Part shown: piece after piece, positions 17,941 to 34,827 of the stretch | How the letters are laid out: every line of letters begins with the position of its first letter | How positions within the stretch are numbered: position 1 is the stretch's first letter | Assembly: GCA_045653565.1 (NCBI GenBank) | Contig: JAZOMA010000012.1 | Span: 2,553 to 66,552, forward strand | From: Alistipes sp. | GTDB taxonomy: Bacteria; Bacteroidota; Bacteroidia; Bacteroidales; Rikenellaceae | Direction: 5' to 3' | DNA length: 64,000 bases | Notes under the pieces: model-generated | What the model saw: the letters and a program-made list of their open reading frames with translations, nothing else | Told to the model about the DNA's origin: nothing | Database searches by the model: none | Translations under genes and position numbers: made by a program

Positions 17941-19248
17941 TTACTCCCACTCGATAGTTGCATTTGGTTTTGGAGAGAGGTCGTAGCATACGCGGTTTAC
18001 GTTTGGTACCTCCTTCAAGATGCGGTCGGTAATCTTTGCCAAGATAGCCCAATCGATATGCTCGATGGAGGCTGTCATTGCGTCTACGGTGTTTACAGCA
18101 CGGAGAATTACAGGCCAGTCGTACGAACGAGCGTTGTCGCGCACGCCTACCGACTTAAAGTCTGGCACTACGGTGAAGTACTGCCATACACTCTTATCCA
18201 AGCCCGCCTTTGCGAACTCCTCGCGCAAGATTGCGTCCGACTCACGAACTGCTTCCAAGCGGTCGCGAGTGATTGCGCCGAGGCAACGAACGCCCAAGCC
18301 TGGTCCTGGGAATGGCTGACGATAAACCATCTCGTATGGTAAGCCCAACTCAACACCGCAAGCACGAACCTCATCCTTGAACAACTGCTTCAATGGCTCA
18401 ACCAACTCGAACTGCAAGTCCTCTGGCAGACCACCTACGTTGTGGTGCGACTTAACCATCTTTGCAGTCTTGGTGCCACTCTCAACGATATCCGGGTAGA
18501 TTGTTCCCTGACCGAGATAGTCGATGCCCTCCAACTTGCGTGCCTCCTCCTCGAATACGCGGATAAACTCGCCACCGATAATCTTACGCTTCTGCCCTGG
18601 GTCGGCAACGTTCTCCAACTTTGTGAGGAAACGCTCCGTAGCGTCAACATAGACGAGGTTAGCGCAGAGCTGCTCGCCGAAAATCTTAACTACATCCTCC
18701 GACTCGCCCTTACGCATCAAACCGTGGTTTACGTGAACGCAAACGAGGTTGTTGCCGATAGCCTTCAAAAGCAATGCTGCCACAACCGACGAGTCTACTC
18801 CACCCGACAATGCGAGCAACACCTTCTTGTCGCCTACCTGCTGGCGAATAAGCTCCACCTGGTCAGCCACGAAGTTGGTCATATTCCAGTTAGCCTCGGC
18901 CTTACAAGTGTCGAATACAAAGCCCTTTACAGCCTCCTTTATGGCGTCGAGGTCGTCTGTAAACTGCGCCAATTTTGTTTCGCACTTTGCGTTGTCCCAG
19001 CCTGCTGCCATCACCGGATAGCCTGCCTCGTAAATCTCGGGCAATACGTCAATCGCTACCCCATCGATTACGTGGTTAGGACCACCATTTATAATTACAC
19101 CCTTAACATTTGGCAACGCCTGCAACTCCTTTGCAGTGATGTCGTGTGGGTAAATCTCGCTATATACGCCCAAAGCGCGAATTGCTCTTGCTACTACTGT
19201 ATTCTCGTGACTGCCCAAGTCCAAGATTACAATCATATCCTGCTTCAT
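17941..19248 (-). CDS. guaA: GMP synthase with a shortened glutaminase domain
   Basis: ALSGGVDSSV, GQGTIYPD, KSHHNVGGLP, RQPFPGPGL, KPNATIEWE. The N-terminal domain lacks the GxCxG and HPE motifs. Confidence 0.95.
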   Translation of the reverse strand: MKQDMIVILDLGSHENTVVARAIRALGVYSEIYPHDITAKELQALPNVKGVIINGGPNHVIDGVAIDVLPEIYEAGYPVMAAGWDNAKCETKLAQFTDDLDAIKEAVKGFVFDTCKAEANWNMTNFVADQVELIRQQVGDKKVLLALSGGVDSSVVAALLLKAIGNNLVCVHVNHGLMRKGESEDVVKIFGEQLCANLVYVDATERFLTKLENVADPGQKRKIIGGEFIRVFEEEARKLEGIDYLGQGTIYPDIVESGTKTAKMVKSHHNVGGLPEDLQFELVEPLKQLFKDEVRACGVELGLPYEMVYRQPFPGPGLGVRCLGAITRDRLEAVRESDAILREEFAKAGLDKSVWQYFTVVPDFKSVGVRDNARSYDWPVILRAVNTVDAMTASIEHIDWAILAKITDRILKEVPNVNRVCYDLSPKPNATIEWE

Positions 19249-19262
19249 AAAAACTTCGTTTT

Positions 19263-19419
19263 TTAATTGATAATTGATAATTGAAAATTGACAATTATTG
19301 GTAAAACGATAAATCGTTTTTGTCTATTTATTATTTTCCTCCTATCAACTATCTGTATTATTTATAAATTAAAATTCCTTTAATTATCAATTGTCAATTG
19401 TCAATTGTCAATTTGAATT
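19263..19419. repeat. Inverted pair of (AATTGAY)n heptamer arrays in the guaB-guaA spacer
   Basis: TAATTGATAATTGATAATTGAAAATTGACAATT faces TAATTATCAATTGTCAATTGTCAATTGTCAATT. Confidence 0.8.
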
Positions 19420-20887
19420 ACTCGCCTCGCGAATAGTTCGGTGTCTCGCGTGTGATGGTGATGTCGTGTGGGTGGTTCTCCACTACGGCTGCCGAGGTGA
19501 TGCGTACGAAGCGTGCCTTCTGCAACTCCTCAATCGAGCGTGCGCCACAGTAGCCCATACCTGCACGGATACCTCCAACCAACTGATATACAGTCTCTGC
19601 CAACGAGCCCTTGAATGGTACGCGACCCACGATGCCCTCCGGCACGAGCTTCATTGCGTTAGCCTCGCCGTCCTGGAAGTAGCGGTCCTTCGAGCCAGCC
19701 TTCATTGCGTCGATAGAGCCCATACCACGATAGGTCTTGAACTTACGACCGTTGTAGATGATAGTTTCGCCCGGCGACTCCTCGGTACCTGCAAACATTG
19801 AACCGCACATTACGCACGTTCCACCTGCCGACAATGCCTTCACGATGTCGCCCGAGTAGCGCAAACCTCCGTCAGCGATAACGCCTACGCCACTACCCTG
19901 TGCCTCCTTAGCGCAGTCGAATATGGCTGTCAACTGCGGTACGCCCACACCTGCAATAATACGGGTGGTGCAGATTGAGCCCGGACCGATACCCACCTTG
20001 ATACCATCGGCACCATTCTCGATAAGATAGCGTGCTGCCTCGGCTGTAGCGATGTTTCCAACCACTACGTCGAGTTTTGGATATACCTCCTTAATCTTTT
20101 TCAACAAACCTACAACGCCCTTCGTGTGTCCGTGTGCCGAGTCGAGAACTACGGCGTCAACGCTCTCGTGTACGAGTGCTGCTACGCGCTCCATAGCGTC
20201 AGGCGTAATGCCGATACCTGCTGCTACGCGAAGGCGACCCTTCGAATCTTTGCACGCATTTGGGTGGTCCTGAGCCTTGGTCAAGTCCTTGTAGGTGATG
20301 AGTCCCACGAGGTGTCCCTCCTTATCGACTACAGGCAACTTCTCAATCTTGTTCGAGAGCAACACCTCGGCAACGTCGGTGTTCTCGCCCTCGGTGATGG
20401 TCACCAGATTCTCGGCGGTCATAACCTCCTCAATCTTGCGAGAGAGATCCTTCTGGAAGCGGAGGTCGCGGTTGGTTACGATGCCCACGAGCATACGATT
20501 CTCGTCTACGACTGGAATACCGCCAATCTTGTTCTCGCGCATCATATCGAGCGCATCGCCCACGGTGTTCTCGCGTGCAATGGTTACGGGGTCGTCAATC
20601 ATACCATTCTCGGCACGCTTAACACGACGCACCTGCGCAGCCTGCTCGGCGATAGACATATTCTTGTGAATCACACCAATACCACCCTCGCGAGCGATTG
20701 CAATCGCCATCGGAGCCTCGGTTACGGTGTCCATCGCAGCCGAAACGATAGGGATGTTGAGCGTGATGTTGCGCGAGAAGCGACTCTTGGTGCTAACCTC
20801 GCGTGGCAAAACCTCCGAGTATGCCGGTACCAGCAACACATCGTCAAAGGTCAAGCCCTCTTGATAAACTCGTTCATCTAAAAACAT
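19418..20887 (-). CDS. guaB: IMP dehydrogenase
   Basis: [20 protein letters not shown], a CBS pair, [17 protein letters not shown]. Confidence 0.98.
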
Positions 20888-20948
20888 AATTACCTATATT
20901 TATATTGTTTGTTATTTTGTTCGTCTCTTTTAGGGGTTATAGGATTTT

Positions 20949-21040
20949 GTAGGATTCGCACCTATGGTGCTTTATGGGATTTGATAGGAAAGCCCTATCT
21001 AATCCTATTTCGTCCTATCTAATCCTATCTAATCCTATTC
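20949..21040. repeat. REP-like palindrome plus (CTAATCCTAT)n decamer array
   Basis: GTAGGATTCGCACCTATGGTGCTTTATGGGA at 20949-20979, then decamers also seen near 2619-2635 and 13226-13262. Confidence 0.7.
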
Positions 21041-21058
21041 CTTATCGGCTTTTGTAGA

Positions 21059-21195
21059 AAAGCAAAAAGGTCGCTACACACCCGTGTAATGACCTTTTTT
21101 AACCGCACACCGCACACGCTCCCACTCTTTTGAACTCCGAGATTTGCGGAGTCTTGCGTAGTCCTATGTTGTGCAATGCGTACATCTACTCAAAC
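21059..21195 (-). promoter_or_regulatory. guaB leader: candidate attenuator (28-aa uORF 21185-21099 and terminator 21064-21099)
   Basis: TATCTTTG at 21209-21202; uORF MYALHNIGLRKTPQISEFKRVGACAVCG*; hairpin AAAAAGGTCATTACAC-GGGT-GTGTAGCGACCTTTTT homologous to the purE leader. Confidence 0.7.
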
Positions 21196-21262
21196 TTTGG
21201 GCAAAGATACAATAAAAAACGGAAAACGGAAAGCGGAAAACGGAAAACTTTTTATTTTTTAC

Positions 21263-21290
21263 AAAAAAAAGCGACCCGAAGGTCGCCTTT
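21263..21290 (-). terminator. Intrinsic terminator
   Basis: GCGACC-TTCG-GGTCGC followed by T8 on the minus strand. Confidence 0.85.
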
Positions 21291-21311
21291 GATTTGCCGA
21301 ACGTAGCTAAA

Positions 21312-21974
21312 TTACTTCTTCAAGAACTTTACAGCCGACGAGTACAACTTGTTAGCCTTAACGGTCTTATTTGCGCTGAGAGGCTCAACACCACCGCCCA
21401 AGTTCGAGTAGTCATCGAAAGTAACTGGGCCAGTGTAGTCAACCTTCAAAGTCTTGCCCTTGAGAGTTGTGAGGACACCCTTAACTACATAGTTCTCACC
21501 CTCCTTCTTAACGGTCAAATTACCGCTAACGATACCGTCGTATACTATGTAAGTCTCAGTTGCCATATCCATCTCTATATAGCCCGAGCCAACGATCTCG
21601 TCATCAAACGCAGCTGCGTCGATGTAGGTGTTTGCTGCAAGACCCTCGCCAGTCTCCCAGTTGATGCCTGCAGGACCAAATACGCCCTCGCCTGTCTTGT
21701 TGCTGAGTTCGGTCATATACTCAACAAAGAGCATCTTGACGATAAGTTGGCCTGTAGCCTCGTTCGCAAGTGCTGTACCTACTGTGAGGTTGTAGTCGTT
21801 GAGACCAACTTCGTAGTAGTCGCCATAGTTCTCAAGCATAACCTCTGATATATATGTCGAGAGTTCGTAGTCTGCTTTAACCTCAGGAGCATCTGGACCT
21901 TCAGGGTTGTTAGGCTCGCAAGCCATCATCATTGTTGCGCCAAGCGCCAAAACTGCAAGTAAATACTTTTTCAT
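21312..21974 (-). CDS. Hypothetical lipoprotein
   Basis: Lipobox MMMAC; own promoter TAAATTTG at 22081-22074 and own terminator. Confidence 0.82.
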   Translation of the reverse strand: MKKYLLAVLALGATMMMACEPNNPEGPDAPEVKADYELSTYISEVMLENYGDYYEVGLNDYNLTVGTALANEATGQLIVKMLFVEYMTELSNKTGEGVFGPAGINWETGEGLAANTYIDAAAFDDEIVGSGYIEMDMATETYIVYDGIVSGNLTVKKEGENYVVKGVLTTLKGKTLKVDYTGPVTFDDYSNLGGGVEPLSANKTVKANKLYSSAVKFLKK

Positions 21975-22163
21975 AATTGTTTAGTTTTAAATTGTTATTA
22001 AAATAAGTGTGTTTGCTTTCAATTTTTAATAAAACACCATTTCGTAGCGGTGTACGTGGGTTTTACTCTATTGCAAATTTAAACACAAAAAATGGATTAT
22101 GCAAATTTTTTAATAAATTTTTCACATTTTTTGCATTTTATTTCGGGATAGATGTTGCGCTGA

Positions 22164-22225
22164 TGTTACATTGTTACACGTGTTACACGGGGGGGGTGCC
22201 CTGTAACACGTGTAACAATGTAACA
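22164..22225. repeat. Perfect 24-bp inverted repeat built of TGTTACA units with a G8-containing spacer
   Basis: TGTTACATTGTTACACGTGTTACA (22164-22187) and its exact reverse complement (22202-22225). Confidence 0.92.
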
Positions 22226-22284
22226 ATTTCAATAAAATGTTGATAAATCTGCCGTGAGGTCTTTTTTATATAATAAAAAAAGAG

Positions 22285-22428
22285 TACCTTTGCGATATGT
22301 TTTTGCAGAGAGTACATACTTCCCCATTGGTTGCGCCGCAGCGTCGCAAGAAGTTGCAGCAGCAGATGTTGGGGAGCGTGCGCGAATAAAAAGGCCACTA
22401 CACGAGTGTGTAGCGGTCTTTTTGCTTT
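22285..22428 (+). promoter_or_regulatory. purE promoter and leader: candidate attenuator (30-aa uORF 22297-22389 and terminator 22388-22428)
   Basis: TACCTTTG at 22285-22292; uORF MFLQRVHTSPLVAPQRRKKLQQQMLGSVRE*; hairpin AAAAAGGCCACTACAC-GAGT-GTGTAGCGGTCTTTTT. Confidence 0.7.
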
Positions 22429-22530
22429 AGGCTATTAGCTGTTAGCCCTTAGCTAGAAAAACAACACAAACAATAATATTAACTAAAAGCCAATGGCCAA
22501 TGGCTAATGGCTAAAAGCAAAAGTTTTTTT

Positions 22531-23010
22531 ATGAAGGTAGCAGTAGTAATGGGCTCGACAAGCGACTGGGATGTTATGAAGGCGGCTTGTGAGACCCTTG
22601 CAGAGTTAGGTATCGAGTACGAGAAGCGTGTAATCAGCGCACACCGTACTCCCGATTTGATGTTTGAGTTTGCGAAGTCGGCGCGTGAGCGTGGCTTTGG
22701 TGCTATTATCGCAGGCGCAGGAGGTGCAGCGCACGTTGCAGGTGTAACGGCAGCGATGACCACCGTGCCAGTTATTGGTGTGCCAATCAAGACCTCGGCA
22801 CTCGGTGGTTTGGACTCGTTGCTCTCGATTGTGCAGATGCCTGGCGGAATACCTGTGGCTACAACTGCAATCAATGGTGCAAAGAATGCGGCTCTTATCG
22901 CTGCGCAGATATTTGCATTGACCGATAAGGCTGTCGAGGAGAAACTTCTCGCCTTCCGTGCAAAGCAGACTGCAACAGTTCTTTCGGCTACGCTTCCAGA
23001 CTTGGAGTAA
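22531..23010 (+). CDS. purE: N5-CAIR mutase / AIR carboxylase
   Basis: [41 protein letters not shown]. Confidence 0.97.
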
Positions 23011-23133
23011 AATCGTTCTGATTGGCTCTTTTCTCACCAATCGTCGGTAGCCGAAATGCTCACATAGGCCTACTATGCTGCGCTTTCAGTCTCCTAGCTT
23101 GGCGAAAAAATAGCTCAATCACCTCCGATTTTG
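23008..23133. mobile_element. ~125-bp palindromic MITE/ERIC-like element, copy 1
   Basis: TAAAATCGTTCTGAT...CGATTTT, starting at the purE stop codon; homologous to 32305-32429 and 33351-33476. Confidence 0.7.
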
Positions 23134-23198
23134 AATTAGTGGAATTTTTAATTTATAAAAAGCCAATGGCTAATGGCTAATGGCTAAGAGCAAAAAAT

Positions 23199-26100
23199 AT
23201 GAAAAATCACAGAATATTTGTCGAGAAGTACGCTCGCTTTCAGGTCGAGGCCGAGTCGCTCCGTAAGGAGTTGAACGAGAACTTGGGTCTCGCTATCGAG
23301 GAGTTGCGTGTACTCAATGTTTATGATTTGTTCGGTTTTAGCGACGAGCTTGTTGAGCGTTGCCGCTACTCCGTATTTGGCGAAATCGTTACCGATAGCG
23401 TGTCGGACGAGTGCGACTACGAGCAGAAGAAACACCTCGCTATCGAGTTCTTGCCCGGTCAGTTCGACCAGCGTGCATCGTCGGCTGTGGACTGCGTACA
23501 CCTGTTGGAGCCTGCCGCCGAGGTTAAAATTCGCTCATCGCGCCTCTACATCTTCGACGATGGCGTTGGCGAGGAGCAGATGGCAAAGATTAAGCACTAC
23601 CTTATCAACGCTGTGGAGTCGCGCGAGAAGAACCTCGCAATACTCTCGGATGCCGAGCAGGCCGATATCAAGCCTGTACCGGTGTTGGAGGGCTTTATCG
23701 ATATGAAGGAGGAGGATTTGTTGCCATACTGCAAAGAGAATGGCTTGGCAATGAATGCAGACGATTTGCGTTGCGTGGTGGAGTACTTCCGCAGCGAGCA
23801 TCGCAACCCTACGCAGACCGAGTTGCGTATCCTCGACACCTACTGGAGTGACCACTGCCGTCACACCACCTTCACAACCGAGATTGAGGAGATAAAGATT
23901 GACGACTCGTTTATGAAGGGCGAGTACGAGACTGCGTTGGCAGAGTTCGGCATTATGCGTAAGGAACTCGGTCGTGAGCAGAAGTCGCTGTGCTTGATGG
24001 AGTTGGCAACTATCGGCGGTCGCTACCTCCGCAAAATTGGCAAGTTGGACGATATGGAGGTGAGCGAGGAGAACAACGCTTGCTCTATCTTCGTTGATGT
24101 AGATATCGAGGGTCAGACAGAGAAGTGGCTCTTGCAGTTCAAAAACGAGACCCACAACCACCCTACCGAGATTGAGCCATTCGGTGGTGCTTCGACCTGC
24201 TTGGGTGGCGCAATTCGCGATCCACTCTCTGGTCGTGCATACGTATATCAGGCTATGCGCGTAACGGGCGCGGGCGATATATATAAAGGTGTAGACGAGA
24301 CTATGGCGGGTAAGTTGCCACAGCGTATCATTTCGCGTAAGGCAGCAGCCGGCTACTCGAGCTACGGAAACCAGATTGGTTTGGCTACAACACACGTGCG
24401 CGAGATTTACCACGACGACTACGTGGCAAAGCGTTTGGAGGTTGGAGCAGTCGTTGGTGCGGTTAAGGCTGCGGACGTTCGTCGTGAGAGCCCGGCACCA
24501 GGCGACGTGGTACTCTTGCTCGGTGGTCGCACAGGTCGTGATGGCATCGGTGGAGCAACAGGCTCGTCGAAGCAGCACACCACCGCTTCGTTGGAGGAGT
24601 GTGGCTCGGAGGTGCAGAAGGGAAATGCTCCCGAGGAGCGCAAGATTCAGCACCTGTTCCGTCGTGGCGACGTAACGCGTCTGATTAAGAAGTCGAACGA
24701 CTTTGGTGCAGGAGGTGTATCGGTGGCTATCGGCGAGTTGACCGATGGCTTGGATATCTACCTCGACCGCGTACCTGTAAAGTATAACGGCTTGAACGCT
24801 ACCGAGTTGGCTATTTCGGAGTCGCAGGAGCGTATGTCCGTAGTTGTCGAGAAGAAGGACGTGGAGGCTATGGTGGCACTCTGCCACGAGGAGAACGTCG
24901 AGGTTACCCACGTAGCCGACGTTACCGACACGAGCCGTATGCGTATGTTCTACAAGGGCGAGAAGGTGGCAGACCTGAAGCGTGAGTTTATCGACTCGGC
25001 AGGTGCAAAGCACTACACCAAGATTGCGTTGGGTGCTATTGAGGAGTGCAACCCATTCCACCGCGACGTAGAGGGTGCAACACTCCGCGAGAAGATGATA
25101 AACAACCTCAAAGATAATAACGTCGTATCGCAGCGTGGTTTGTGCGAGATGTTCGACTCGACCATCGGTCGCTCGACCGTGCTGATGCCATTCGGCGGCA
25201 AGACGCAGCGCACCGAGACACAGGTGTCGATGCAGACCTTGCCTGTACGCCACGGTAAGACCTCGACAGCGAGTGTTATGGCGTTTGGCTTTAACCCATA
25301 TATCTCGGCGTGGTCGCCATATCACGGTGCAGAGTACGCCGTAGTGGAGGCTATCGCAAAGGTTGTGGCTTCGGGTGCTTCGTACGAGAAGATGCGCTTC
25401 TCGTATCAGGAGTACTTCGAACGTATGACCGATGCTCGCTCGTGGGGCAAGCCTATGTCGGCATTGCTCGGTACTATCCGTATGCAGAAGGCATTCGAGT
25501 TGCCATCTATTGGCGGTAAGGACTCGATGAGTGGTACTTTCCAGAACATCAACGTTCCACCAACCCTCATCGCATTCGGTATCACAACGCTCGACGCACG
25601 TAAGGCTATCAGCCCAGAGTTTAAGGAGGCAGGCAATGGTTTGTACCTCGTTAAGCATAACCACAATGCCGACTACACTCCAAATACCGAGGAGTTGAAG
25701 GCAAACTTTAAGGGGGTTACCGAGGAGATTCACAAGGGCAATATCGTTTCGGCATACGCAATCGGCTTTGGTGGCGTAGCGGAGGCAGTGGCCAAGATGT
25801 CGTTCGGTAACGAGATTGGTGCAACGTTGACCTGCGACGAGTCTACCCTATTCGACTACTCTTATGGTTCGATTTTGGTCGAGGCTAAGGAGGCATTCGA
25901 GGGTGCAGTTAAGGTGGGCGAAACTGTAGCAGAGAAGTGCGTAGAGGTCTTGGGCGAGAAGTTCTCGTTGGCAGAGTTGTACGACGCAAACACTGCGAAG
26001 TTCGAGAAGATATATCCAGCCAAAGGTAAGTCGGGCGAGAAGTGCCGCGAGAGCAACCACACCGCCGTAGCGCCTACATATAAGGGCGAGAAGGTGGAGA

Positions 26101-26897
26101 AGGTGCAGGTTTACCTCCCTGTATTCCCAGGTACAAACTGCGACTACGACACCGCACGCGCATTCGAGCGTGAGGGTGCCGAGACCCATATCGGTGTGTT
26201 CCGCAACCTCACTCCAGAGGACGTATTGCACTCGATTGAGGCGATGGCAAAGGCTATCGACGAGTGTCATATCCTCGTATTGAGTGGCGGTTTCTCGTTG
26301 GGTGATGAGCCGGATGGTAGCGGTAAGTTCATCGCAAGCGTTTTGAACAACGCAACCGTTACGAAGGCTGTACACGCTTTGATTGAGCGTGGAGGCTTGA
26401 TTTTGGGTATCTGCAACGGCTTCCAGGCACTCGTTAAGTCGGGCTTGTTGCCTTATGGTCGCTTGGGTATGATGACCACAGAGTCGCCTACATTGTTCCA
26501 CAACGACATTCACCGCCACATCTCGCAGATTGTTTCGACCCGTGTCGGCACTACGGCTTCGCCTTGGTTGTCGTCGTTCGAGGTTGGCGACTTGCACTCT
26601 ATCGCAGTGAGTCACGGCGAGGGTAAGTTCGTGGTTAGCGAGGAGATGGCCGAGGAGTTGTTCGCAAATGGTCAGGTGGCATTCCAGTATGCCGATATGG
26701 AGGGCAATGCTACGACCGATGCTCCACACAACCCTAACGGCTCGTCGTATGGTATCGAGGGTATCATCTCGAAGAATGGTCAGATTCTCGGAAAGATGGG
26801 ACACACGGAGCGTTACGATGATTGCTTGTTCAAGAATATCGCAGGCGAGAAGCGTCAGAATATCTTCGCTAATGCAATTGAATATTTTACAAAATAA
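23199..26897 (+). CDS. purL: Phosphoribosylformylglycinamidine synthase, large single-chain form
   Basis: YWSDHCRH, KNETHNHPT, GGKDSMSG, FPGTNC, GICNGFQ, SHGEG. Confidence 0.97.
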   Translation: MKNHRIFVEKYARFQVEAESLRKELNENLGLAIEELRVLNVYDLFGFSDELVERCRYSVFGEIVTDSVSDECDYEQKKHLAIEFLPGQFDQRASSAVDCVHLLEPAAEVKIRSSRLYIFDDGVGEEQMAKIKHYLINAVESREKNLAILSDAEQADIKPVPVLEGFIDMKEEDLLPYCKENGLAMNADDLRCVVEYFRSEHRNPTQTELRILDTYWSDHCRHTTFTTEIEEIKIDDSFMKGEYETALAEFGIMRKELGREQKSLCLMELATIGGRYLRKIGKLDDMEVSEENNACSIFVDVDIEGQTEKWLLQFKNETHNHPTEIEPFGGASTCLGGAIRDPLSGRAYVYQAMRVTGAGDIYKGVDETMAGKLPQRIISRKAAAGYSSYGNQIGLATTHVREIYHDDYVAKRLEVGAVVGAVKAADVRRESPAPGDVVLLLGGRTGRDGIGGATGSSKQHTTASLEECGSEVQKGNAPEERKIQHLFRRGDVTRLIKKSNDFGAGGVSVAIGELTDGLDIYLDRVPVKYNGLNATELAISESQERMSVVVEKKDVEAMVALCHEENVEVTHVADVTDTSRMRMFYKGEKVADLKREFIDSAGAKHYTKIALGAIEECNPFHRDVEGATLREKMINNLKDNNVVSQRGLCEMFDSTIGRSTVLMPFGGKTQRTETQVSMQTLPVRHGKTSTASVMAFGFNPYISAWSPYHGAEYAVVEAIAKVVASGASYEKMRFSYQEYFERMTDARSWGKPMSALLGTIRMQKAFELPSIGGKDSMSGTFQNINVPPTLIAFGITTLDARKAISPEFKEAGNGLYLVKHNHNADYTPNTEELKANFKGVTEEIHKGNIVSAYAIGFGGVAEAVAKMSFGNEIGATLTCDESTLFDYSYGSILVEAKEAFEGAVKVGETVAEKCVEVLGEKFSLAELYDANTAKFEKIYPAKGKSGEKCRESNHTAVAPTYKGEKVEKVQVYLPVFPGTNCDYDTARAFEREGAETHIGVFRNLTPEDVLHSIEAMAKAIDECHILVLSGGFSLGDEPDGSGKFIASVLNNATVTKAVHALIERGGLILGICNGFQALVKSGLLPYGRLGMMTTESPTLFHNDIHRHISQIVSTRVGTTASPWLSSFEVGDLHSIAVSHGEGKFVVSEEMAEELFANGQVAFQYADMEGNATTDAPHNPNGSSYGIEGIISKNGQILGKMGHTERYDDCLFKNIAGEKRQNIFANAIEYFTK

Positions 26898-26950
26898 TAA
26901 ACATAAAATTAGCCAATGGCTAATGGCTAATGGCTAAAGGTTAAAAGATT

Positions 26951-28321
26951 ATGAGTGTTTTAGCAGTATATAACGTTGAACACGCCTCGTCGTTGGTCTA
27001 CTATGGATTGCATTCGATGCAGCATCGTGGACAAGAGGGCTGCGGAATGGTTAGCGTGGCAGAAGATGGTCATATGTACCGTCAACGCGGTCACGGACTT
27101 GTGCAGGAGGTGTTCAACGAGAGTGTTCTCTCGAAGTTAGAGGGAAAGATGTGTCTTGGACACGTGTTGTACACTACGGCAAATGGTCGCAGCATCGATA
27201 ATATCGAGCCGTTGTCGTTCCTTCACAATACGGGCTCGTTCGCAGTTGCACACAATGGCAACATTGTGAATGCCAAGCAGATACGCGACTATTTGGAGTC
27301 GAAGGGAAGCCTCTTCCAGTCGAATACAAATGCCGAGTTGCTGGCACACCTCATCAAGAAGGAGGCAGACGAACCACGCATCTTTACGATTATGGAGGCG
27401 TTGGATTTGTTGGAGGGCTCATTTGCCTTTGTCATTATGACGCAGAACCGCCTCTATGCTTGTCGTGACAAGTATGGCATTCGCCCGTTGGCTATCGGTA
27501 AGTTGGGCGACGGCTATGTGGTGTCGAGCGAAACCTGCGCCTTCGATGTTATGGGAGCAGAGTTCGTGCGCGATGTTGCACCGGGTGAGATTGTGACAAT
27601 CGACCACAATGGCTTGCGTAGTCGCCAGTATTCGCTTACGAGCGAGCATAATATGTGCGCTATGGAGTATATCTACTTCGCACGCCCCGATAGCGATATC
27701 GACGGTTGCAACGTGCACGCCTTCCGAAAGGAGTCGGGACGTCGTTTGTGGCACGAGGCTCCAGCCGAGGCGGATATTGTGGTTGGAGTGCCCGATTCGT
27801 CGCTTTCGGCTGCTATGGGTTATGCCGAGGCGAGTGGAATACCTTACGAAATGGGACTTATCAAGAATAAGTATATCGGTCGCACCTTCATTCAGCCTTC
27901 GCAGGCGTTGCGCGAGAAGGGTGTAAAGATGAAGTTGTCGGCAATACGCTCCATTGTGGATGGCAAGCGTATAGCACTGATTGACGATTCGATAGTTCGC
28001 GGAACAACCTCGAAGCGCATTGTGACGATGTTGCGCGAGGCTGGTGCAAAGGAGGTACACGTGCGTATTGTCAGCCCTACGATGAAGTATCCGTGCTGCT
28101 ATGGCGTCGATACTACAACGCTGGACGAGCTGATTAGCGCAAAGCACTCTGTGGAGGAGACCTGCAAAATTATCGGTGCCGACACATTGGCATTTATGTC
28201 TGTCGAGGAGTGTCTGGCATCGTCGAATGGCAAGTGCTCGAAGATGTGCTTTGCCTGCTTCGATGGCAAGTACCCTACCCCAATGACACACGATATTTCG
28301 GAAATTAACAAGAAAAAATAG
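26951..28321 (+). CDS. purF: Amidophosphoribosyltransferase lacking the N-terminal catalytic Cys
   Basis: [37 protein letters not shown]-terminal Cys ligands. The N-terminus is MSVLAVY. Confidence 0.95.
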
Positions 28322-28329
28322 ATACAATT

Positions 28330-29355
28330 ATGGCAGTAAATTACGAAAAAGCGGGCGTAAACCTCGAGGCTGGTTACGAGGTTGTTCGCCGAATCAAACA
28401 ACACGTAGCATCGACCAACCGCCTCGGTACAATGGGCAATATCGGTGCATTTGGTGGAATGTTCGACCTCGCAGCACTCAATATCAAAGAGCCTGTGCTG
28501 GTTAGCGGCACCGATGGTGTTGGTACAAAGTTGAAGTTGGCTTTCGCAATGGATAAGCACGATACTATCGGTATCGACGCTGTTGCGATGTGTGTGAACG
28601 ACGTGTTGGCACAGGGTGCCGAGCCGTTGTTCTTCCTCGACTATGTGGCACTCGGACACAACATTCCTGCAAAGGTCGAGGCTATTGTTGCAGGTGTTGC
28701 CGAGGGTTGCCGTCAGGCAGGTTGTGCTTTGATTGGTGGCGAGACTGCCGAGATGCCAGGTATGTATGAGGACGGCGAGTACGATATCGCAGGCTTCACT
28801 TGCGGTGTTGTCGAGAAGTCGCAACTCATCGATGGCTCGAAGGTTAAGGTTGGCGACGTTTTGATTGGTATCGCATCGAGCGGTGTTCACTCGAACGGTT
28901 TCTCGCTCGTGCGTAAGGTGTTGGCTGACAATAACTTGGACTTGAATGCGAAGTACGAGGAGTTGGGCGACCGCACTCTCGGTGAGGCGTTGCTCTGCCC
29001 TACCCGCATCTATGTTAAGCAGGTGTTGGAGGTTGTTCGCAACTGCGACGTTCACGGCATCTGCCACATCACAGGTGGTGGTTTCGACGAGAACATACCA
29101 CGTATCTTGCACGACGGCCAGGGCTTACACATCAACGAAGGCTCGTGGGAGATATTGGGCGTATTTAAGTTGCTCGAGAAGTATGGCCAGATTCCGCACC
29201 GTGAGATGTTTAACATCTTTAATATGGGCGTAGGTATGGTAATCGCACTCGACGAGAGCGAGGCTCAGAAGGCACTCGACATCTTGGCTGCTGCAGGCGA
29301 GAAGGCGTCGATTATCGGTTGCGTAACAGCAGAAGAGGGCGTTGTAATTGAATAG
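28330..29355 (+). CDS. purM: AIR synthetase
   Basis: [46 protein letters not shown]. Confidence 0.97.
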
Positions 29356-29480
29356 AGAGTAGTGAGGAGTTAGTAGAGAGTAGTTGAACGCTAACGCTAC
29401 TAACGTCTCTAATAAAAAGCCAATGGCTAATGGCCAATGGCTAATAGCAAAGAGTAATAATATATAAGTATAGATATAAG

Positions 29481-31010
29481 ATGAGAGCATTAGTAAGTGT
29501 AAGCGACAAGACCGGCTTGGTTGAGTTTGTAAGCGGTTTGCAGTCGCTTGGTTGGGAGATTATCGCTACGGGCGGTACCCAGAGCCTTTTGGAGAAGAAT
29601 GGCGTAAAGACTATCGGTATCAGCGATGTAACAGGTTTCCCTGAGATTTGTGATGGTCGTGTTAAGACCTTGCACCCAAAAGTTCACGGCGGTTTGTTGG
29701 CTCGTCGCGATTTGGAGAGCCACTTGGAAGCGTTGCGTGAGAATGGTATCGAGTTTATCGATATGGTATGCGTAAACCTCTACCCTTTCCGTCAGACTAT
29801 CGCTAAGGAGGGCGTAGAGATGGCTGAGGCTATCGAGAATATCGACATCGGTGGTCCTTCTATGTTGCGTTCGGCAGCAAAGAACTATAAGGACGTAACC
29901 GTAGTTTGCGACCCTGCAGACTATGCGCAGATTCTTGACGAGATTAAGGCTGAGGGCAATACTAAGGTTGAGACTCGTTTGCAACTCTCGGCTAAGGCTT
30001 ATACCCATACCGCAGAGTACGATATGTGCATCGCAACCTATATGCGCAAGCAGGCTGGTTTGTCGGAGAAACTATTCTTGGAGTTCGACGAGCAACAGTC
30101 GTTGCGTTATGGCGAGAACCCTCACCAGTCGGCTAAGTTCTATCGTGACAACTCTACCACTCACTTCTCGTTGGCTTATGCCGAGCAGTTGAATGGTAAG
30201 GAGCTTTCGTACAACAACATTCAGGACGCAAATGCAGCGTTGAATATCGTTCGTGAGTTCGACGAGCCATTCTGCGTAGCACTGAAGCACATGAACCCTT
30301 GCGGTGCAGCAATCGGAAAGGATGCGTTGGAGGCTTGGACTCGCGCTTACGAGGCGGATACAAAGAGTATCTTTGGCGGTATCGTGGCTCTCAACCGTGA
30401 GGTTACCGCAGAGGTGGCACTCGGTATGAAGCCTATATTCTTGGAGATTGTTATGGCTCCATCGTTTACCCCTGAGGCACTCGAGATTCTCTCCGCGAAG
30501 AAGAACTTGCGTGTGTTGAAGGTCGATATGACTCGCACAAACGATGTTCAGAATCAGTATATTAGCGTTAATGGCGGATTGCTTGTTCAGCACCTCGACA
30601 CCACCACTAAGGAGGTTGTTGCAGATATGTGCGTAACCGAGGCGAAGCCTTCGGAGGATGTTTTGACCGACCTTAACTTCGGCTGGCGCATTGTTAAGCA
30701 CGTTAAGTCGAACGCTATTGCAGTGGTTAAGAATGGCGCAACTTTGGGCGTTGGTGCTGGTCAGATGAACCGTGTAGGCTCGGCTGAGATTGCTCTCAAA
30801 CAGGCACAGGCAGCGGGTCATACTGAGGGTCTTGTACTCGCTTCGGACGGCTTCCTTCCATTCGACGATACCGTTGCTTTCGCAGCAGAGTATGGCGTAA
30901 CTGCTATCGTTCAGCCAGGTGGCTCTGTTCGCGACGAGGATTCGATTAAGAAGGCTAACGAGTTGGGTATTACGATGCTCTTTACCGGAATGCGCCACTT
31001 CAAACATTAA
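29481..31010 (+). CDS. purH: Bifunctional AICAR transformylase/IMP cyclohydrolase
   Basis: ALVSVSDK, GRVKTLHP, IDIGGP, RYGENPHQ, KHMNPCG, RHFKH. Confidence 0.98.
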   Translation: MRALVSVSDKTGLVEFVSGLQSLGWEIIATGGTQSLLEKNGVKTIGISDVTGFPEICDGRVKTLHPKVHGGLLARRDLESHLEALRENGIEFIDMVCVNLYPFRQTIAKEGVEMAEAIENIDIGGPSMLRSAAKNYKDVTVVCDPADYAQILDEIKAEGNTKVETRLQLSAKAYTHTAEYDMCIATYMRKQAGLSEKLFLEFDEQQSLRYGENPHQSAKFYRDNSTTHFSLAYAEQLNGKELSYNNIQDANAALNIVREFDEPFCVALKHMNPCGAAIGKDALEAWTRAYEADTKSIFGGIVALNREVTAEVALGMKPIFLEIVMAPSFTPEALEILSAKKNLRVLKVDMTRTNDVQNQYISVNGGLLVQHLDTTTKEVVADMCVTEAKPSEDVLTDLNFGWRIVKHVKSNAIAVVKNGATLGVGAGQMNRVGSAEIALKQAQAAGHTEGLVLASDGFLPFDDTVAFAAEYGVTAIVQPGGSVRDEDSIKKANELGITMLFTGMRHFKH

Positions 31011-31059
31011 TAACAAAAAAGCCAATGGCCAATGGCTAATGGCTAATAGCTTAAGTAAT

Positions 31060-32307
31060 ATGAAAGTTTTAGTCGTTGGCTCGGGAGGTCGTGAGCACGC
31101 TATTGTTGATGCGTTGTTCCGTTCGCCGAGTGTAGATAAGATATACTGCGCACCCGGAAATGCGGGTATTGCTCGTCAGGCGGAGTGCGTAGCGATTAAG
31201 GAGACCGAGGTCGAAAGGTTGAAGGCGTTTGTTAAGGAAAACGCTATAGATTTGACCGTAGTAGGTCCTGAGGCTGCTTTGGCGGTGGGTATTGCCGATG
31301 AGTTCCGCAAGGATGGACTCAAAATATTCGGTCATACCAAGTCGGCTGCGCGTATCGAGACATCGAAGGAGTTTGCCAAAGAGTTGATGGCGAAGTACGA
31401 GATTCCGACTGCTGCCTATAAGGCGTTCGAAAACTACGACGAGGCTGTGGCTTATGTCGAGGCTCGTCCATTGCCAGCGGTGCTGAAATACGATGGTTTG
31501 GCAGCTGGTAAGGGCGTGGTTATTGCCGAAAGTATGGAGGAGGCTCGCGAGGCTTTGCGCGATATGCTTTTGGATGATAGATTCGGCAAGGGTCGCGTTG
31601 TTATAGAGGATTACCTCGAAGGTCCCGAGTTCTCGCTGATGTGCTTTGTGGAGGGCGAGAATGTCTACCCTATGCCTGTAGCGCAGGATCACAAGCGTGC
31701 TTTCGATGGCGATAAAGGTCCAAATACTGGCGGTATGGGAGCCTACACCTCGTTGCCATTTATCACCGAGGAGGATCTCGAGTTCGCTATGCAGCGAGTG
31801 ATGATTCCTACTGCTAAAGCAATGGTTGCAGAGGGTTGTGCGCTTTCGGGAGTTCTTTATGGCGGTTTGATGAAAACTGCTGATGGAGTGAAGGTTATCG
31901 AGTTTAATGCTCGCTTTGGTGACCCCGAAACTGAGGTCGTGTTGCCATTGATCGATAGCGATATTGCCAACGTATTCGAGGCTGTTGCAACGGGCGTAAA
32001 ACCGGCAGAAATCATCTGGAGCAAGGATGTTACCCTCGGTATTGTTCTTGCTTCGAAGGGCTATCCTGGTGACTACGCAAAGGGCTACGTTATTCGTGGT
32101 ACCGAGAGTGTTGACGGCACCGTATTCCATATGGGTACAGCAGTTAAAGATGGCGAGTTGGTAACCGCAGGAGGTCGTGTATTGTTCGTTGTGGCAAAGG
32201 GTGCTACCCTTGCAGACGCGCACCGCAAGGCTAACGAGGAGGTTTCGAAAATTGAGTGTGAGAACCTTTTCCACCGTACAGATATTGGACATAAAGCTTT
32301 TAAATAA
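31060..32307 (+). CDS. purD: Phosphoribosylamine-glycine ligase
   Basis: GSGGREHA, APGNAG, DGLAAGKGV, GPNTGGMG, EFNARFGDPE. Confidence 0.98.
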   Translation: MKVLVVGSGGREHAIVDALFRSPSVDKIYCAPGNAGIARQAECVAIKETEVERLKAFVKENAIDLTVVGPEAALAVGIADEFRKDGLKIFGHTKSAARIETSKEFAKELMAKYEIPTAAYKAFENYDEAVAYVEARPLPAVLKYDGLAAGKGVVIAESMEEAREALRDMLLDDRFGKGRVVIEDYLEGPEFSLMCFVEGENVYPMPVAQDHKRAFDGDKGPNTGGMGAYTSLPFITEEDLEFAMQRVMIPTAKAMVAEGCALSGVLYGGLMKTADGVKVIEFNARFGDPETEVVLPLIDSDIANVFEAVATGVKPAEIIWSKDVTLGIVLASKGYPGDYAKGYVIRGTESVDGTVFHMGTAVKDGELVTAGGRVLFVVAKGATLADAHRKANEEVSKIECENLFHRTDIGHKAFK

Positions 32308-32429
32308 AATCGTTCTGATAAGTTCTTTTTGCACCTTGCTTGCAGCGTAAATCCTCACATACGCCCAAGTATGCTGCGGTTTCCGCTACTGCGCAACGCA
32401 CAAAAATAATCTTATCATATTCGATTTTA
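32305..32429. mobile_element. ~125-bp palindromic element, copy 2
   Basis: TAAAATCG...CGATTTTA termini, starting at the purD stop codon. Confidence 0.7.
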
Positions 32430-32495
32430 GTACGCTGAAGAATAAAAACAAAAAAAGCTAATGGCCAATGGCTAATAGCTGATAGCTAAAAAGTT

Positions 32496-33353
32496 ATGGG
32501 AAATATAATTGACGGAAAACAACTCTCGTTGCGCTTGAAGGGCGAGATGGCAGAGGAGGTTAAGTCGTTGGCAGCGAAATATGGACGTGTACCATCGTTG
32601 GCGGTGATTCTCGTTGGCGAGAACCCTGCGAGTCAGTCGTATGTTCGTGGTAAGATTAAGGCTGCCGAGGAGGTGGGTATTCGCAGCGAACTCATCACTA
32701 TGCCTGCCGATACTACCGAGGAGGCTCTCTTGGCGGAGATTGACCGTTTGAATGCCGACGCTGTGATTGACGGTGTGCTGGTGCAGTTGCCGCTGCCGAA
32801 ACATATCGACGAGGAGCGCGTAATTGACGCTATTGCCCTCGAAAAAGATGTCGATGGCTTCCACCCTGCCAATGTTGCTAATTTGTGGCTCGGAAAGCCT
32901 TGCATTGTGCCTTGCACACCAAAGGGCATTATGCAGATGATTGCCGAGTGTGGCTTCTCTGTAGCGGGCAAAAAGGCTGTTGTAGTGGGTCGTAGCAACA
33001 TCGTAGGTAAACCTATCTCGAAGTTGTTGCTCGATGCAAATGCAACGGTTACTATTGCTCACTCGCGTACTGCCGACTTGGGCGCAGTGTGTCGCGAGGC
33101 AGATATCTTGGTGGCGGCTGTTGGTCGCAAACACCTTATTACCGCCGATATGATTAAGCCGGGTGCTATCGTTATCGACGTGGGTGTAAATCGTGATGCC
33201 GAGACGGGCAAGTTGTGTGGCGATGTTGATACCGCAGCAGCGCAGGAGGTGGCTTCATTCATCACTCCGGTACCCGGTGGCGTAGGCCCTATGACTATCA
33301 CAATGCTAATGAAAAATACTATCGAATGCTACCTAAACCGAATTATTAAATAA
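32496..33353 (+). CDS. folD: Methylene-THF dehydrogenase/cyclohydrolase
   Basis: [43 protein letters not shown]. Confidence 0.98.
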
Positions 33354-33476
33354 AATCGTTCTGATTGGCTCTTTTTGCACGAATCGGCGGACGCTGAAAT
33401 GCCCACATAGGCTGACTATGCTCCGCTTTCATCGCCTTGCTTCGCACAAAAATAGCTCAACCATTTACGATTTTTG
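33351..33476. mobile_element. ~125-bp palindromic element, copy 3, bracketed by a 22-bp direct repeat
   Basis: Starts at the folD stop codon. CTAAACCGAATTATTAAATAAA occurs at 33333-33354 and 33492-33513. Confidence 0.72.
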
Positions 33477-33528
33477 TAATATGTGTTTGTGCTAAACCGA
33501 ATTATTAAATAAACTAACATAATATACT

Positions 33529-34827
33529 ATGATTGAAAGATATAGCAGAAAGATTATGCGTGATGTTTGGACCGAGCAGAACAAATTCAACGCATATCTC
33601 AAAGTTGAGATTCTCGCTTCGGAGGCTTGGAGCGAGTTGGGCGTAGTGCCAAAGGAGGATGTTCAGAAGTTGTGGGATAAGGCGTCGTTCTCGATTGATC
33701 GTATCAAGGAGATTGAGGAGCAGACTCGCCACGATATCGTAGCCTTCACTCGTGCCGTGAGCGAGACTCTCGGCGAGGAGCGTAAGTGGGTACACTACGG
33801 CTTGACCTCTACCGACGTTGTAGATACCGCAAACGGCTATCTGCTCCGTCAGGCAAACGAGATTTTGGAGAAGGATTTGGAGGCGTTCTTGGCGGTGCTG
33901 AAGCGTCGTGCTTTGGAGTTCCGCAACACCCCTTGCATTGGCCGTACTCACGGTATTCACGCCGACATCACCTGCTTCGGTCTGAAGTGGGCTTTATGGT
34001 ACGAGGAGATGAAGCGCAATATCGAGCGTTTCCGCGCAGCTGCTCGTGGCGTAGAGGTCGGAAAAATCAGCGGTGCTGTGGGCAACTTCGCCAACATTCC
34101 GCCTTCGATTCAGGACTATGTTTGCGAGAAGTTGGGCATCGACAGCGCAAACGTTTCGACTCAGGTTATTCAGCGTGACCGCCACGCCTATTATCTTGCT
34201 ACATTGGCAGTTATCGCATCGTCATTGGAACAGATGGCCCTCGAGGTGCGCAACTTGCAGCGTACCGAGGTACACGAGGTCGAAGAGGCTTTCGGTAAGG
34301 GTCAGAAGGGTTCGAGCGCAATGCCTCACAAACGTAACCCAATCTCGTCGGAGAATATTTGTGGCTGCGCTCGCGTGATGCGTGGTTATATGGCTACTGC
34401 GTGCGAGAATGTTGCTTTGTGGCACGAGCGCGATATTTCGCACTCGGCAACCGAGCGTATCATCTTGCCAGACGCTACCGAGTTGTTGGACTATATGCTC
34501 AATCGTTTTATGGGTATCTTGGACAACCTCGTAGTGTTCGAGGATGTGATGATGGAGAATATCTATCGCACTCGCAAGGTTATCTTCGCACAGCGCGTTA
34601 TGAACGCCCTGATTGACAAGGGCTTGTCGCGCGAGGAGGCATACGATACCGTACAGCCTGTGGCTATGCGTGCAATGGCTGAGCGTGCTGACTATCAGGA
34701 ACTTTTGGCAGAGAACGAGAAGGTGATGTCGAAACTCTCGCGTGAGGAGTTGGACTCGTGCTTCACATTGGAGTACTACCTCAAGAATGTGGACTACATC
34801 TTCCGTCGCGCAGGCATTATCGAGTAA
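33529..34827 (+). CDS. purB: Adenylosuccinate lyase (Bacillus-type length)
   Basis: [44 protein letters not shown]. Confidence 0.97.

Follow-up and report, generated by a model that had tools for sequence, protein, structure and literature searches.

The window analysed here, i.e. the whole 64,000-nt stretch of Alistipes sp. DNA, contains guaBA and a long run of pur genes on opposite strands, each set preceded by a short upstream open reading frame (uORF) that stops at a terminator hairpin, and the question raised by this locus is what these two leaders may sense. The source genome (G000) is 1.74 Mb and 84% complete, and the nearest relatives of its PurL that carry a name come from Alistipes MAGs. 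An earlier reading, made from the sequence only, had described the two operons as divergent; they are divergent but not adjacent, as a 220-aa gene intervenes here. In several relatives the guaBA and pur operons stand back to back. The genes concerned are:

17941..20887, minus strand: guaB (19418-20887) and guaA (17941-19248), the regulated genes, both confirmed
22507..34827, plus strand: purE-purL-purF-purM-purH-purD-folD-purB, the regulated run, genes confirmed and presumably co-transcribed
21312-21974, minus strand (21268..21974 with its terminator): orphan lipoprotein-like gene, 220 aa, between the guaB and pur leaders
21268-21290, minus strand: own terminator of the lipoprotein-like gene

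The lipoprotein-like gene lies outside the proposed switch, is found in only some relatives (45-77% identity) and has no NCBIfam or Pfam match. Between it and the pur promoter lies a near-perfect palindrome of short repeats (22161-22228), related copies of which occur on contig C41. Tandem repeats with 5-10 nt units flank the leaders (20940-21050, 21205-21250 and 22430-22520), and in relatives other, variable repeat tracts are located directly 3' of the terminators and lengthen the UTR to ~400 nt. As to the encoded enzymes, GuaA (17941-19248) is short, with 435 aa and a truncated amidotransferase part, and TIGR01857 is the best-matching model for PurL (23199-26897). A short GuaA and a TIGR01857-type PurL are types known from Firmicutes, and the operon may have been acquired horizontally.

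The two leaders are composed of the following parts:

22285..22292, plus strand: pur promoter -7 box, Bacteroidota sigma-A, TAnnTTTG (consensus as given in an excerpt of PMC7366714)
22297..22389, plus strand: purE leader uORF, 30 codons, ATG 4 nt past the -7 box, Gln-rich in this subclade
22371..22384, plus strand: G/YG-rich tract at the purE uORF end, predicted GTP-sensitive slow zone with a putative role in pausing
22377, 22381 and 22383, plus strand: pause-like Y-to-G steps in the purE tract
22393..22428, plus strand: purE intrinsic terminator, stem 22393-22418 and U-tract 22419-22428, the stem starting 3 nt after the uORF stop
21202..21209, minus strand: guaB promoter -7 box, TAnnTTTG
21099..21185, minus strand: guaB leader uORF, 28 codons, ATG 16 nt past the -7 box
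21103..21123, minus strand: guaB G/YG-rich tract, predicted GTP-sensitive slow zone with a putative role in pausing
21118, 21116, 21114 and 21112, minus strand: pause-like Y-to-G steps in the guaB tract
21059..21094, minus strand: guaB intrinsic terminator of the purE type, stem 21094-21069 and U-tract 21068-21059, 4 nt after the stop

The common layout that had been proposed for the guaB and purE leaders, i.e. a -7 box, a short uORF (28 codons in guaB, 30 in purE) and a terminator, was confirmed from the sequence, and the two hairpins are more stable than shuffled sequences (z of -5.07 for purE and -4.33 for guaB). The TAA stop had been said to overlap the terminator hairpin, which is true of the A-tract only; the G/C stem begins 3-4 nt later. 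The purE ATG is located 4 nt past the -7 box in 60 of 77 leaders, and ordinary genes show a small peak at this same box-to-ATG offset (10 genes, with 0 at offsets 0, 1 and 3), so that the purE uORF is likely to be leaderless.

A genome-wide scan for this layout, in which 891 promoter-like sites gave 27 candidates, recovered the purE and guaB leaders and, in addition, a leader before a dihydroorotase gene (pyrC):

G000:C33:123650-123870, outside the window: pyrC operon leader (L142), uORF of 42 codons that is U-rich towards its stop, with a terminator 6 nt further on

The other 24 candidates resembled tRNA genes, small genes or chance, and purA, purC and hpt were found to have no such leader in this genome. 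The dihydroorotase gene heads pyrC-carA-carB, which is probably continued by a pyrK-D-F-E-B run on another contig (pyrE and pyrB were identified by search, the other pyr names come from reading the proteins). The pyrC leader has a conserved hairpin within its uORF, followed by U-rich sequence. In the GC-rich clade of the genus, a leader of this kind precedes 16 of 20 pyrC genes and has its stop at -6..+13 nt from the stem, and both purE and pyrC leaders occur in single-contig genomes of the genus.

Is this arrangement kept in related genomes? The purE leader DNA has matches in 25 of 300 genomes of the genus. Upstream regions were then gathered by protein search, and as these genomes are kin and were chosen by purE similarity, the counts that follow are not independent. 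With a script taking the last -7 box before the gene, the strongest hairpin and the first ATG, a leader was called in 77/90 purE, 40/73 guaB and 25/31 pyrC regions (tallies of close and distant leaders include one purE-type leader before guaB, in G343). The remaining regions comprise a short UTR in 2 purE, 22 guaB and 0 pyrC cases; in the others the promoter, terminator or ATG was uncalled. The position of the uORF stop proved to be conserved: 69/77 purE, 35/40 guaB and 23/25 pyrC leaders have it at -3..+15 nt from the stem, where dinucleotide shuffles predict 4.1, 2.9 and 1.2. Moreover, the frame set by the ATG contains no stop up to 18 nt before the stem in 75/77 purE, 40/40 guaB and 25/25 pyrC leaders; the other two frames are open in 22 and 30 (purE), 1 and 20 (guaB) and 1 and 9 (pyrC). 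That is, the leader ORF of purE and guaB is maintained as far as an intrinsic terminator or into it. Furthermore, in an alignment of 23 close purE leaders all uORF indels but one are multiples of 3.

In 30 more distant genomes of the genus, searching backwards under looser rules gave, in 23, an ATG frame of at least 26 codons that ends beside the family hairpin; in the same genomes the strict script called 14 leaders, 11 of them in register. Among 20 order-level Bacteroidales purE upstream regions, a hairpin of this family was present in one (G508, same family); this sample sets no bound on the range of the leader, because the purE genes in it are mostly distant and often inside operons. The stop is out of register in 8/77 purE and 5/40 guaB leaders, some of which are mis-calls by the script and some real (G097, G137, G177 and G185).

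Leaders have apparently also been lost. Outside two subclades guaB mostly has a 25-35 nt UTR and no leader (22/73), and there are guaB UTRs of ~75 nt with a GTGTG remnant and no terminator, as well as some purE UTRs of 33-35 nt; the genomes with such leaderless UTRs (L008 in G012, L190 in G208, L137 in G078 and L143 in G073) are apparent cases of leader loss. Such losses, which affect guaB in the greater part of the genus and purE in a few genomes, together with the persistence of out-of-register stops in some genomes, would agree with a fixed, unregulated dampener, in which uORF translation sets a constant level of read-through. A constant level would nevertheless not need a uORF end whose composition follows the pathway, as is found in two distant clades (see below), and we regard the dampener as quite improbable.

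The conserved frame might alternatively mark independent small-protein genes with terminators of their own, purE and guaB being transcribed from other promoters. A dN/dS below 1 in the uORFs and a hairpin-to-gene gap of up to ~400 nt in some genomes would agree with this, but the peptides of different clades show no relationship, many of the gaps measure just 20-50 nt, the promoter that was scored is the last -7 box before the gene, and the same layout recurs at three nucleotide operons, which together make this explanation the least credible of those considered. The dN/dS values are 0.68 for purE, 0.60 for guaB and 0.39 for pyrC uORFs, against 0.04, 0.04 and 0.12 for the respective genes, and the uORF peptides are thus weakly constrained. 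Their length ranges from 25 to ~68 codons and their sequences are unalignable across clades.

The hairpins of the two purine leaders had been called homologous, and this stands: they are identical at 36 of 41 nt (BLAST E ~5.5e-8), all five differences pair or fall in the loop, and an A.C mismatch is common to both, in line with the observation that stem differences keep pairing. A dispersed repeat was considered and ruled out, since the 84%-complete genome, in its 1.74 Mb, contains the hairpin just twice, in the purE and guaB leaders, with no copy at unrelated genes. In another genome (L056) there is one hairpin-only match without a purine gene.

In the close clade, the guaB hairpin is either of the purE type or of an unrelated version that is also present in the outgroup. 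The guaB terminator thus exists in unrelated versions, all of them adjoining the uORF stop. On a pyrC tree of 31 genomes (3 rows carrying no hairpin-type label), the guaB hairpin type requires 6 changes, at least 5 of them being forced by well-supported branches. Moreover, among 13 genomes with purE-type guaB hairpins, the purE and guaB hairpins of the same genome resemble each other more closely than permuted pairs do (23.6 vs 20.5; reached by 0.02% of permutations). These data suggest that the inverted purE leader has likely been copied repeatedly onto guaB by gene conversion, replacing an unrelated terminator, and that the homology of the hairpins probably reflects such copying rather than an old shared motif. 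The terminator is thus a replaceable part. What is kept appears to be the distance of the terminator from the stop, the identity of the hairpin being immaterial.

Four loci in which the stop is inside or past the hairpin (L053 in G097, L043 in G137, L054 in G177 and L051 in G185) constitute natural variants, caused by one extra G in a G-run or by hairpin replacement; in G137, G177 and G185 it is the guaB stop that lies inside or past the hairpin after hairpin replacement. At a further locus (L165, G343:C62), a purE-type promoter, uORF and hairpin stand before guaB, which is either a real leader swap or a misassembly via repeats common with the truncated purE contig L094.

A different kind of switch would be a new riboswitch or an RNA-protein attenuator with an antiterminator, e.g. 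with a protein bound to the GUGYG tract. The GTGYG core is present in 40/40 guaB, 55/77 purE and 0/25 pyrC leaders, and both leaders of the window can fold upstream of the terminator, which would agree with such a switch. The antiterminator in which CGTG was to pair with CACG had to be dropped, however: the pair co-occurs in 5/77 purE and 2/40 guaB leaders and never outcompetes the terminator. More generally, the best duplex between upstream sequence and the 5' arm is weaker than the terminator in 127 of 127 leaders (mean z near 0). In the 23 close purE leaders, double-sided covariation was detected at 4 pairs, all within the terminator, and no covarying structure was found upstream of it (the distant leaders being unalignable). 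The strict open frame would not be explained by a ligand- or protein-binding RNA, and uORFs of 25 to ~68 codons that cannot be aligned also speak against one. Furthermore, no Rfam family matched the 17 homolog loci at gathering score. The absence of a known purine riboswitch core was borne out for the window leaders (no Rfam 15 match at gathering score), and the matches found by E-value were miRNA-like, on the palindrome 22161-22228, or below the cut-off. The new ligand- or protein-binding motif that had been offered as one of two alternatives is therefore very unlikely, in view of the lack of covariation outside the terminator, the variable length and sequence of the leaders and the replaceable terminator.

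The blocks said to be collinear between the two window leaders fared unequally. GTAC recurs (40/77 purE and 20/40 guaB leaders), but CATTG (4/77 and 3/40), CGCAAGA (3/77 and 4/40) and the exact GGGAGCGTG.GCG (4/77 and 4/40) are rare, and upstream of the G-tract the alignment of the purE and guaB leaders only marginally beats shuffles, 3.3% of which are as good. Contrary to the claim that the last block is read in different frames, both uORFs, when aligned at the stop, end in GTG-YGC-NNN-stop and in the same frame.

A further feature is the nucleotide composition of the uORF ends. G makes up 0.355 of the last 36 uORF nt in purE, 0.446 in guaB and 0.111 in pyrC leaders, and U makes up 0.223, 0.231 and 0.446, respectively. 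When leaders of one genome are compared, the purine leader contains more G than that of pyrC in 19/19 purE and 16/16 guaB pairs, and the 17 G per 36 nt of the guaB uORF end is reached by 0.1% of 827 gene ends. In distant, GC-rich Alistipes, purE has less U than pyrC in each of 15 pairs, and its G is higher in 12 of these and equal in 2; for purE vs pyrC of the GC-rich core the contrast in G is modest (14.3 vs 10.9 per 40 nt). The distant purE leaders contain 31% G and 30% A, some being A/U-rich. That is, the tract is rich in the pathway's own nucleotide, G for purE and guaB and U for pyrC, more weakly so in the distant purE leaders. Because the uORF ends at the terminator and is G-rich there, and U-rich before the pyr operon, the purine genes are likely to be on at low GTP, and the pyrC leader is likely a pyrBI-like UTP attenuator across Alistipes.

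A switch in which the ribosome blocks the terminator could also take translation speed as its main input (charged Gln-tRNA, ppGpp or growth rate). PurF, PurL and GuaA use glutamine, and Gln accounts for 20% of the residues, mostly as CAG, in the purE uORFs of the close clade; moreover, the geometry of stop and terminator suits any switch based on coupling. Gln falls to 5.8% in the distant purE uORFs, however, and to 8% or 3% in those of guaB, so that no amino-acid control codon is conserved genus-wide and Gln-richness is confined to the close purE clade. Nor would translation speed explain the split between G and U that matches the end product of the pathway. We therefore consider it unlikely as the main input.

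Could a ribosome at the uORF stop reach the hairpin? Ordinary gene ends in this genome avoid that position: among 1046 long genes, 235 have a terminator-like hairpin near the stop, 225 of them at -3..60 nt, with a median of 24 nt and 16% (37/225) at 12 nt or less, as compared with the 3-4 nt between stop and stem in the leaders. Given the footprint of a ribosome, one standing at such a stop is near enough to cover the 5' arm of the hairpin. The elemental pause consensus is G-10, Y-1, G+1, and sites with this pattern outnumber those of shuffled sequences in 4 of 5 purine groups; in the purE leaders of the GC-rich core Alistipes there is no such excess (17 vs 19 in shuffles). In the purine leaders, position -10 carries G no more often than the offsets next to it, so that what is established is richness in G and YG and not a specific pause register. 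According to the excerpted text of PMC11213015, coupling is likely in Bacteroides and the RNA polymerase of B. fragilis pauses at the E. coli consensus, a pause that was assayed with GTP as the incoming nucleotide in the excerpt of PMC6336406.

Taken together, the comparative data make it reasonably probable that the purE and guaB leaders are coupling-dependent attenuators of the pyrBI/pyrE type that sense low GTP. At low GTP, the numerous Y-to-G steps towards the end of the uORF would slow RNA polymerase down, and the ribosome would close the gap, stop at the stop codon and mask the 5' arm of the hairpin, so that purE or guaB would be transcribed. When GTP is high, RNA polymerase would outpace the ribosome, the hairpin would fold and transcription would end. 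The distant purE leaders, rich in A and G, may read ATP as well, and the pyrC leader, being U-rich, would be their twin that senses UTP. The other alternative of the sequence-only reading had been a purine counterpart of pyrBI; it fits all comparative tests and gains an internal control in the U-rich pyrC twin, with purine responsiveness as its prediction. In the 84%-complete genome, PyrR is absent among 6 PRTase-domain matches, no PuR_N or LacI domain scores over the cut-off, and pyrG was not found. There is perhaps an even chance that nucleotide synthesis in Alistipes is governed more generally by matched, protein-free attenuators with RNA polymerase as the NTP sensor, guaBA being G-rich (GTP), pur G/A-rich (GTP and ATP) and pyr U-rich (UTP), in a modular design whose terminators are swapped by gene conversion.

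That RNA polymerase can act as the NTP sensor in a translated leader is textbook knowledge for pyrimidine operons, the leader ORF of the rph-pyrE attenuator stopping a short distance before the hairpin, and purine operons are known to use PurR or riboswitches. No GTP-sensing or Alistipes purine attenuator was found in the literature searched, although supplements of motif and small-ORF screens, outside that search, could list such leaders; the excerpts of PMC7366714, PMC6524683 and PMC6429828 do not show this one. What the present analysis adds is the leader of guaB, the U-rich twin at pyrC and the proposed swapping of hairpins. If true, this would be the first coupling-dependent attenuator in the literature searched that controls purine synthesis by sensing GTP; if confirmed, it would be the GTP counterpart of pyrimidine attenuation and would explain the control of purine synthesis in a common gut genus. 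With these leaders, the coupling of transcription and translation in Bacteroidota could also be tested directly in vivo, and the G and U twins in one genome suit a clean tract-swap experiment.

Among known systems, the purine, ZTP, PRPP/ppGpp and other purine-operon riboswitches and PyrR attenuation share the regulated genes and a terminator in the 5' leader, whereas the Alistipes leaders have no Rfam match and no conserved aptamer fold, and no PyrR was found in the genome. The trp, his and thr leader-peptide attenuators likewise have a uORF before a terminator before a biosynthetic operon; unlike them, the Alistipes leaders have no conserved control codons or antiterminator, and a ribosome at the stop would open the operon rather than close it. 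In the Salmonella mgtCBR leader, ATP is sensed via conserved nucleotides of the uORF mgtM, the peptide being unconserved; the nucleotides used are A, alternative stem-loops take part, and an operon for virulence and Mg transport is switched on when ATP is high (excerpt of PMC3641672). The Alistipes leaders would resemble it in sensing a purine NTP within a uORF of unconserved peptide, but have G residues and a single terminator, with feedback repression of biosynthesis, and hence a logic opposite to that of mgtM, as the predicted outcome. The closest likeness is to E. coli pyrBI, where coupling with the ribosome blocks the hairpin and the leader (pyrL) has an NTP-rich stretch that matches the pathway product (excerpts of PMC3641672 and PMC5021804). 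Common to pyrBI, rph-pyrE and the Alistipes leaders are a leader ORF, an intrinsic terminator, no antiterminator and a stretch matching the nucleotide of the pathway; in Alistipes, however, the tract is G-rich (predicted to respond to GTP), the operons are for purines, the host is a member of the Bacteroidota and the purE uORF is likely leaderless. Furthermore, the Alistipes uORF stops just before the stem, as in pyrE, and does not run through it. The U-rich tract before a pyrimidine operon that goes with UTP sensing is seen at pyrC (U 0.446) and not in the purine leaders (U 0.22-0.23), and because their tract is not U-rich the latter are to be placed as a variant of the pyrBI/pyrE class rather than as strict members of it.
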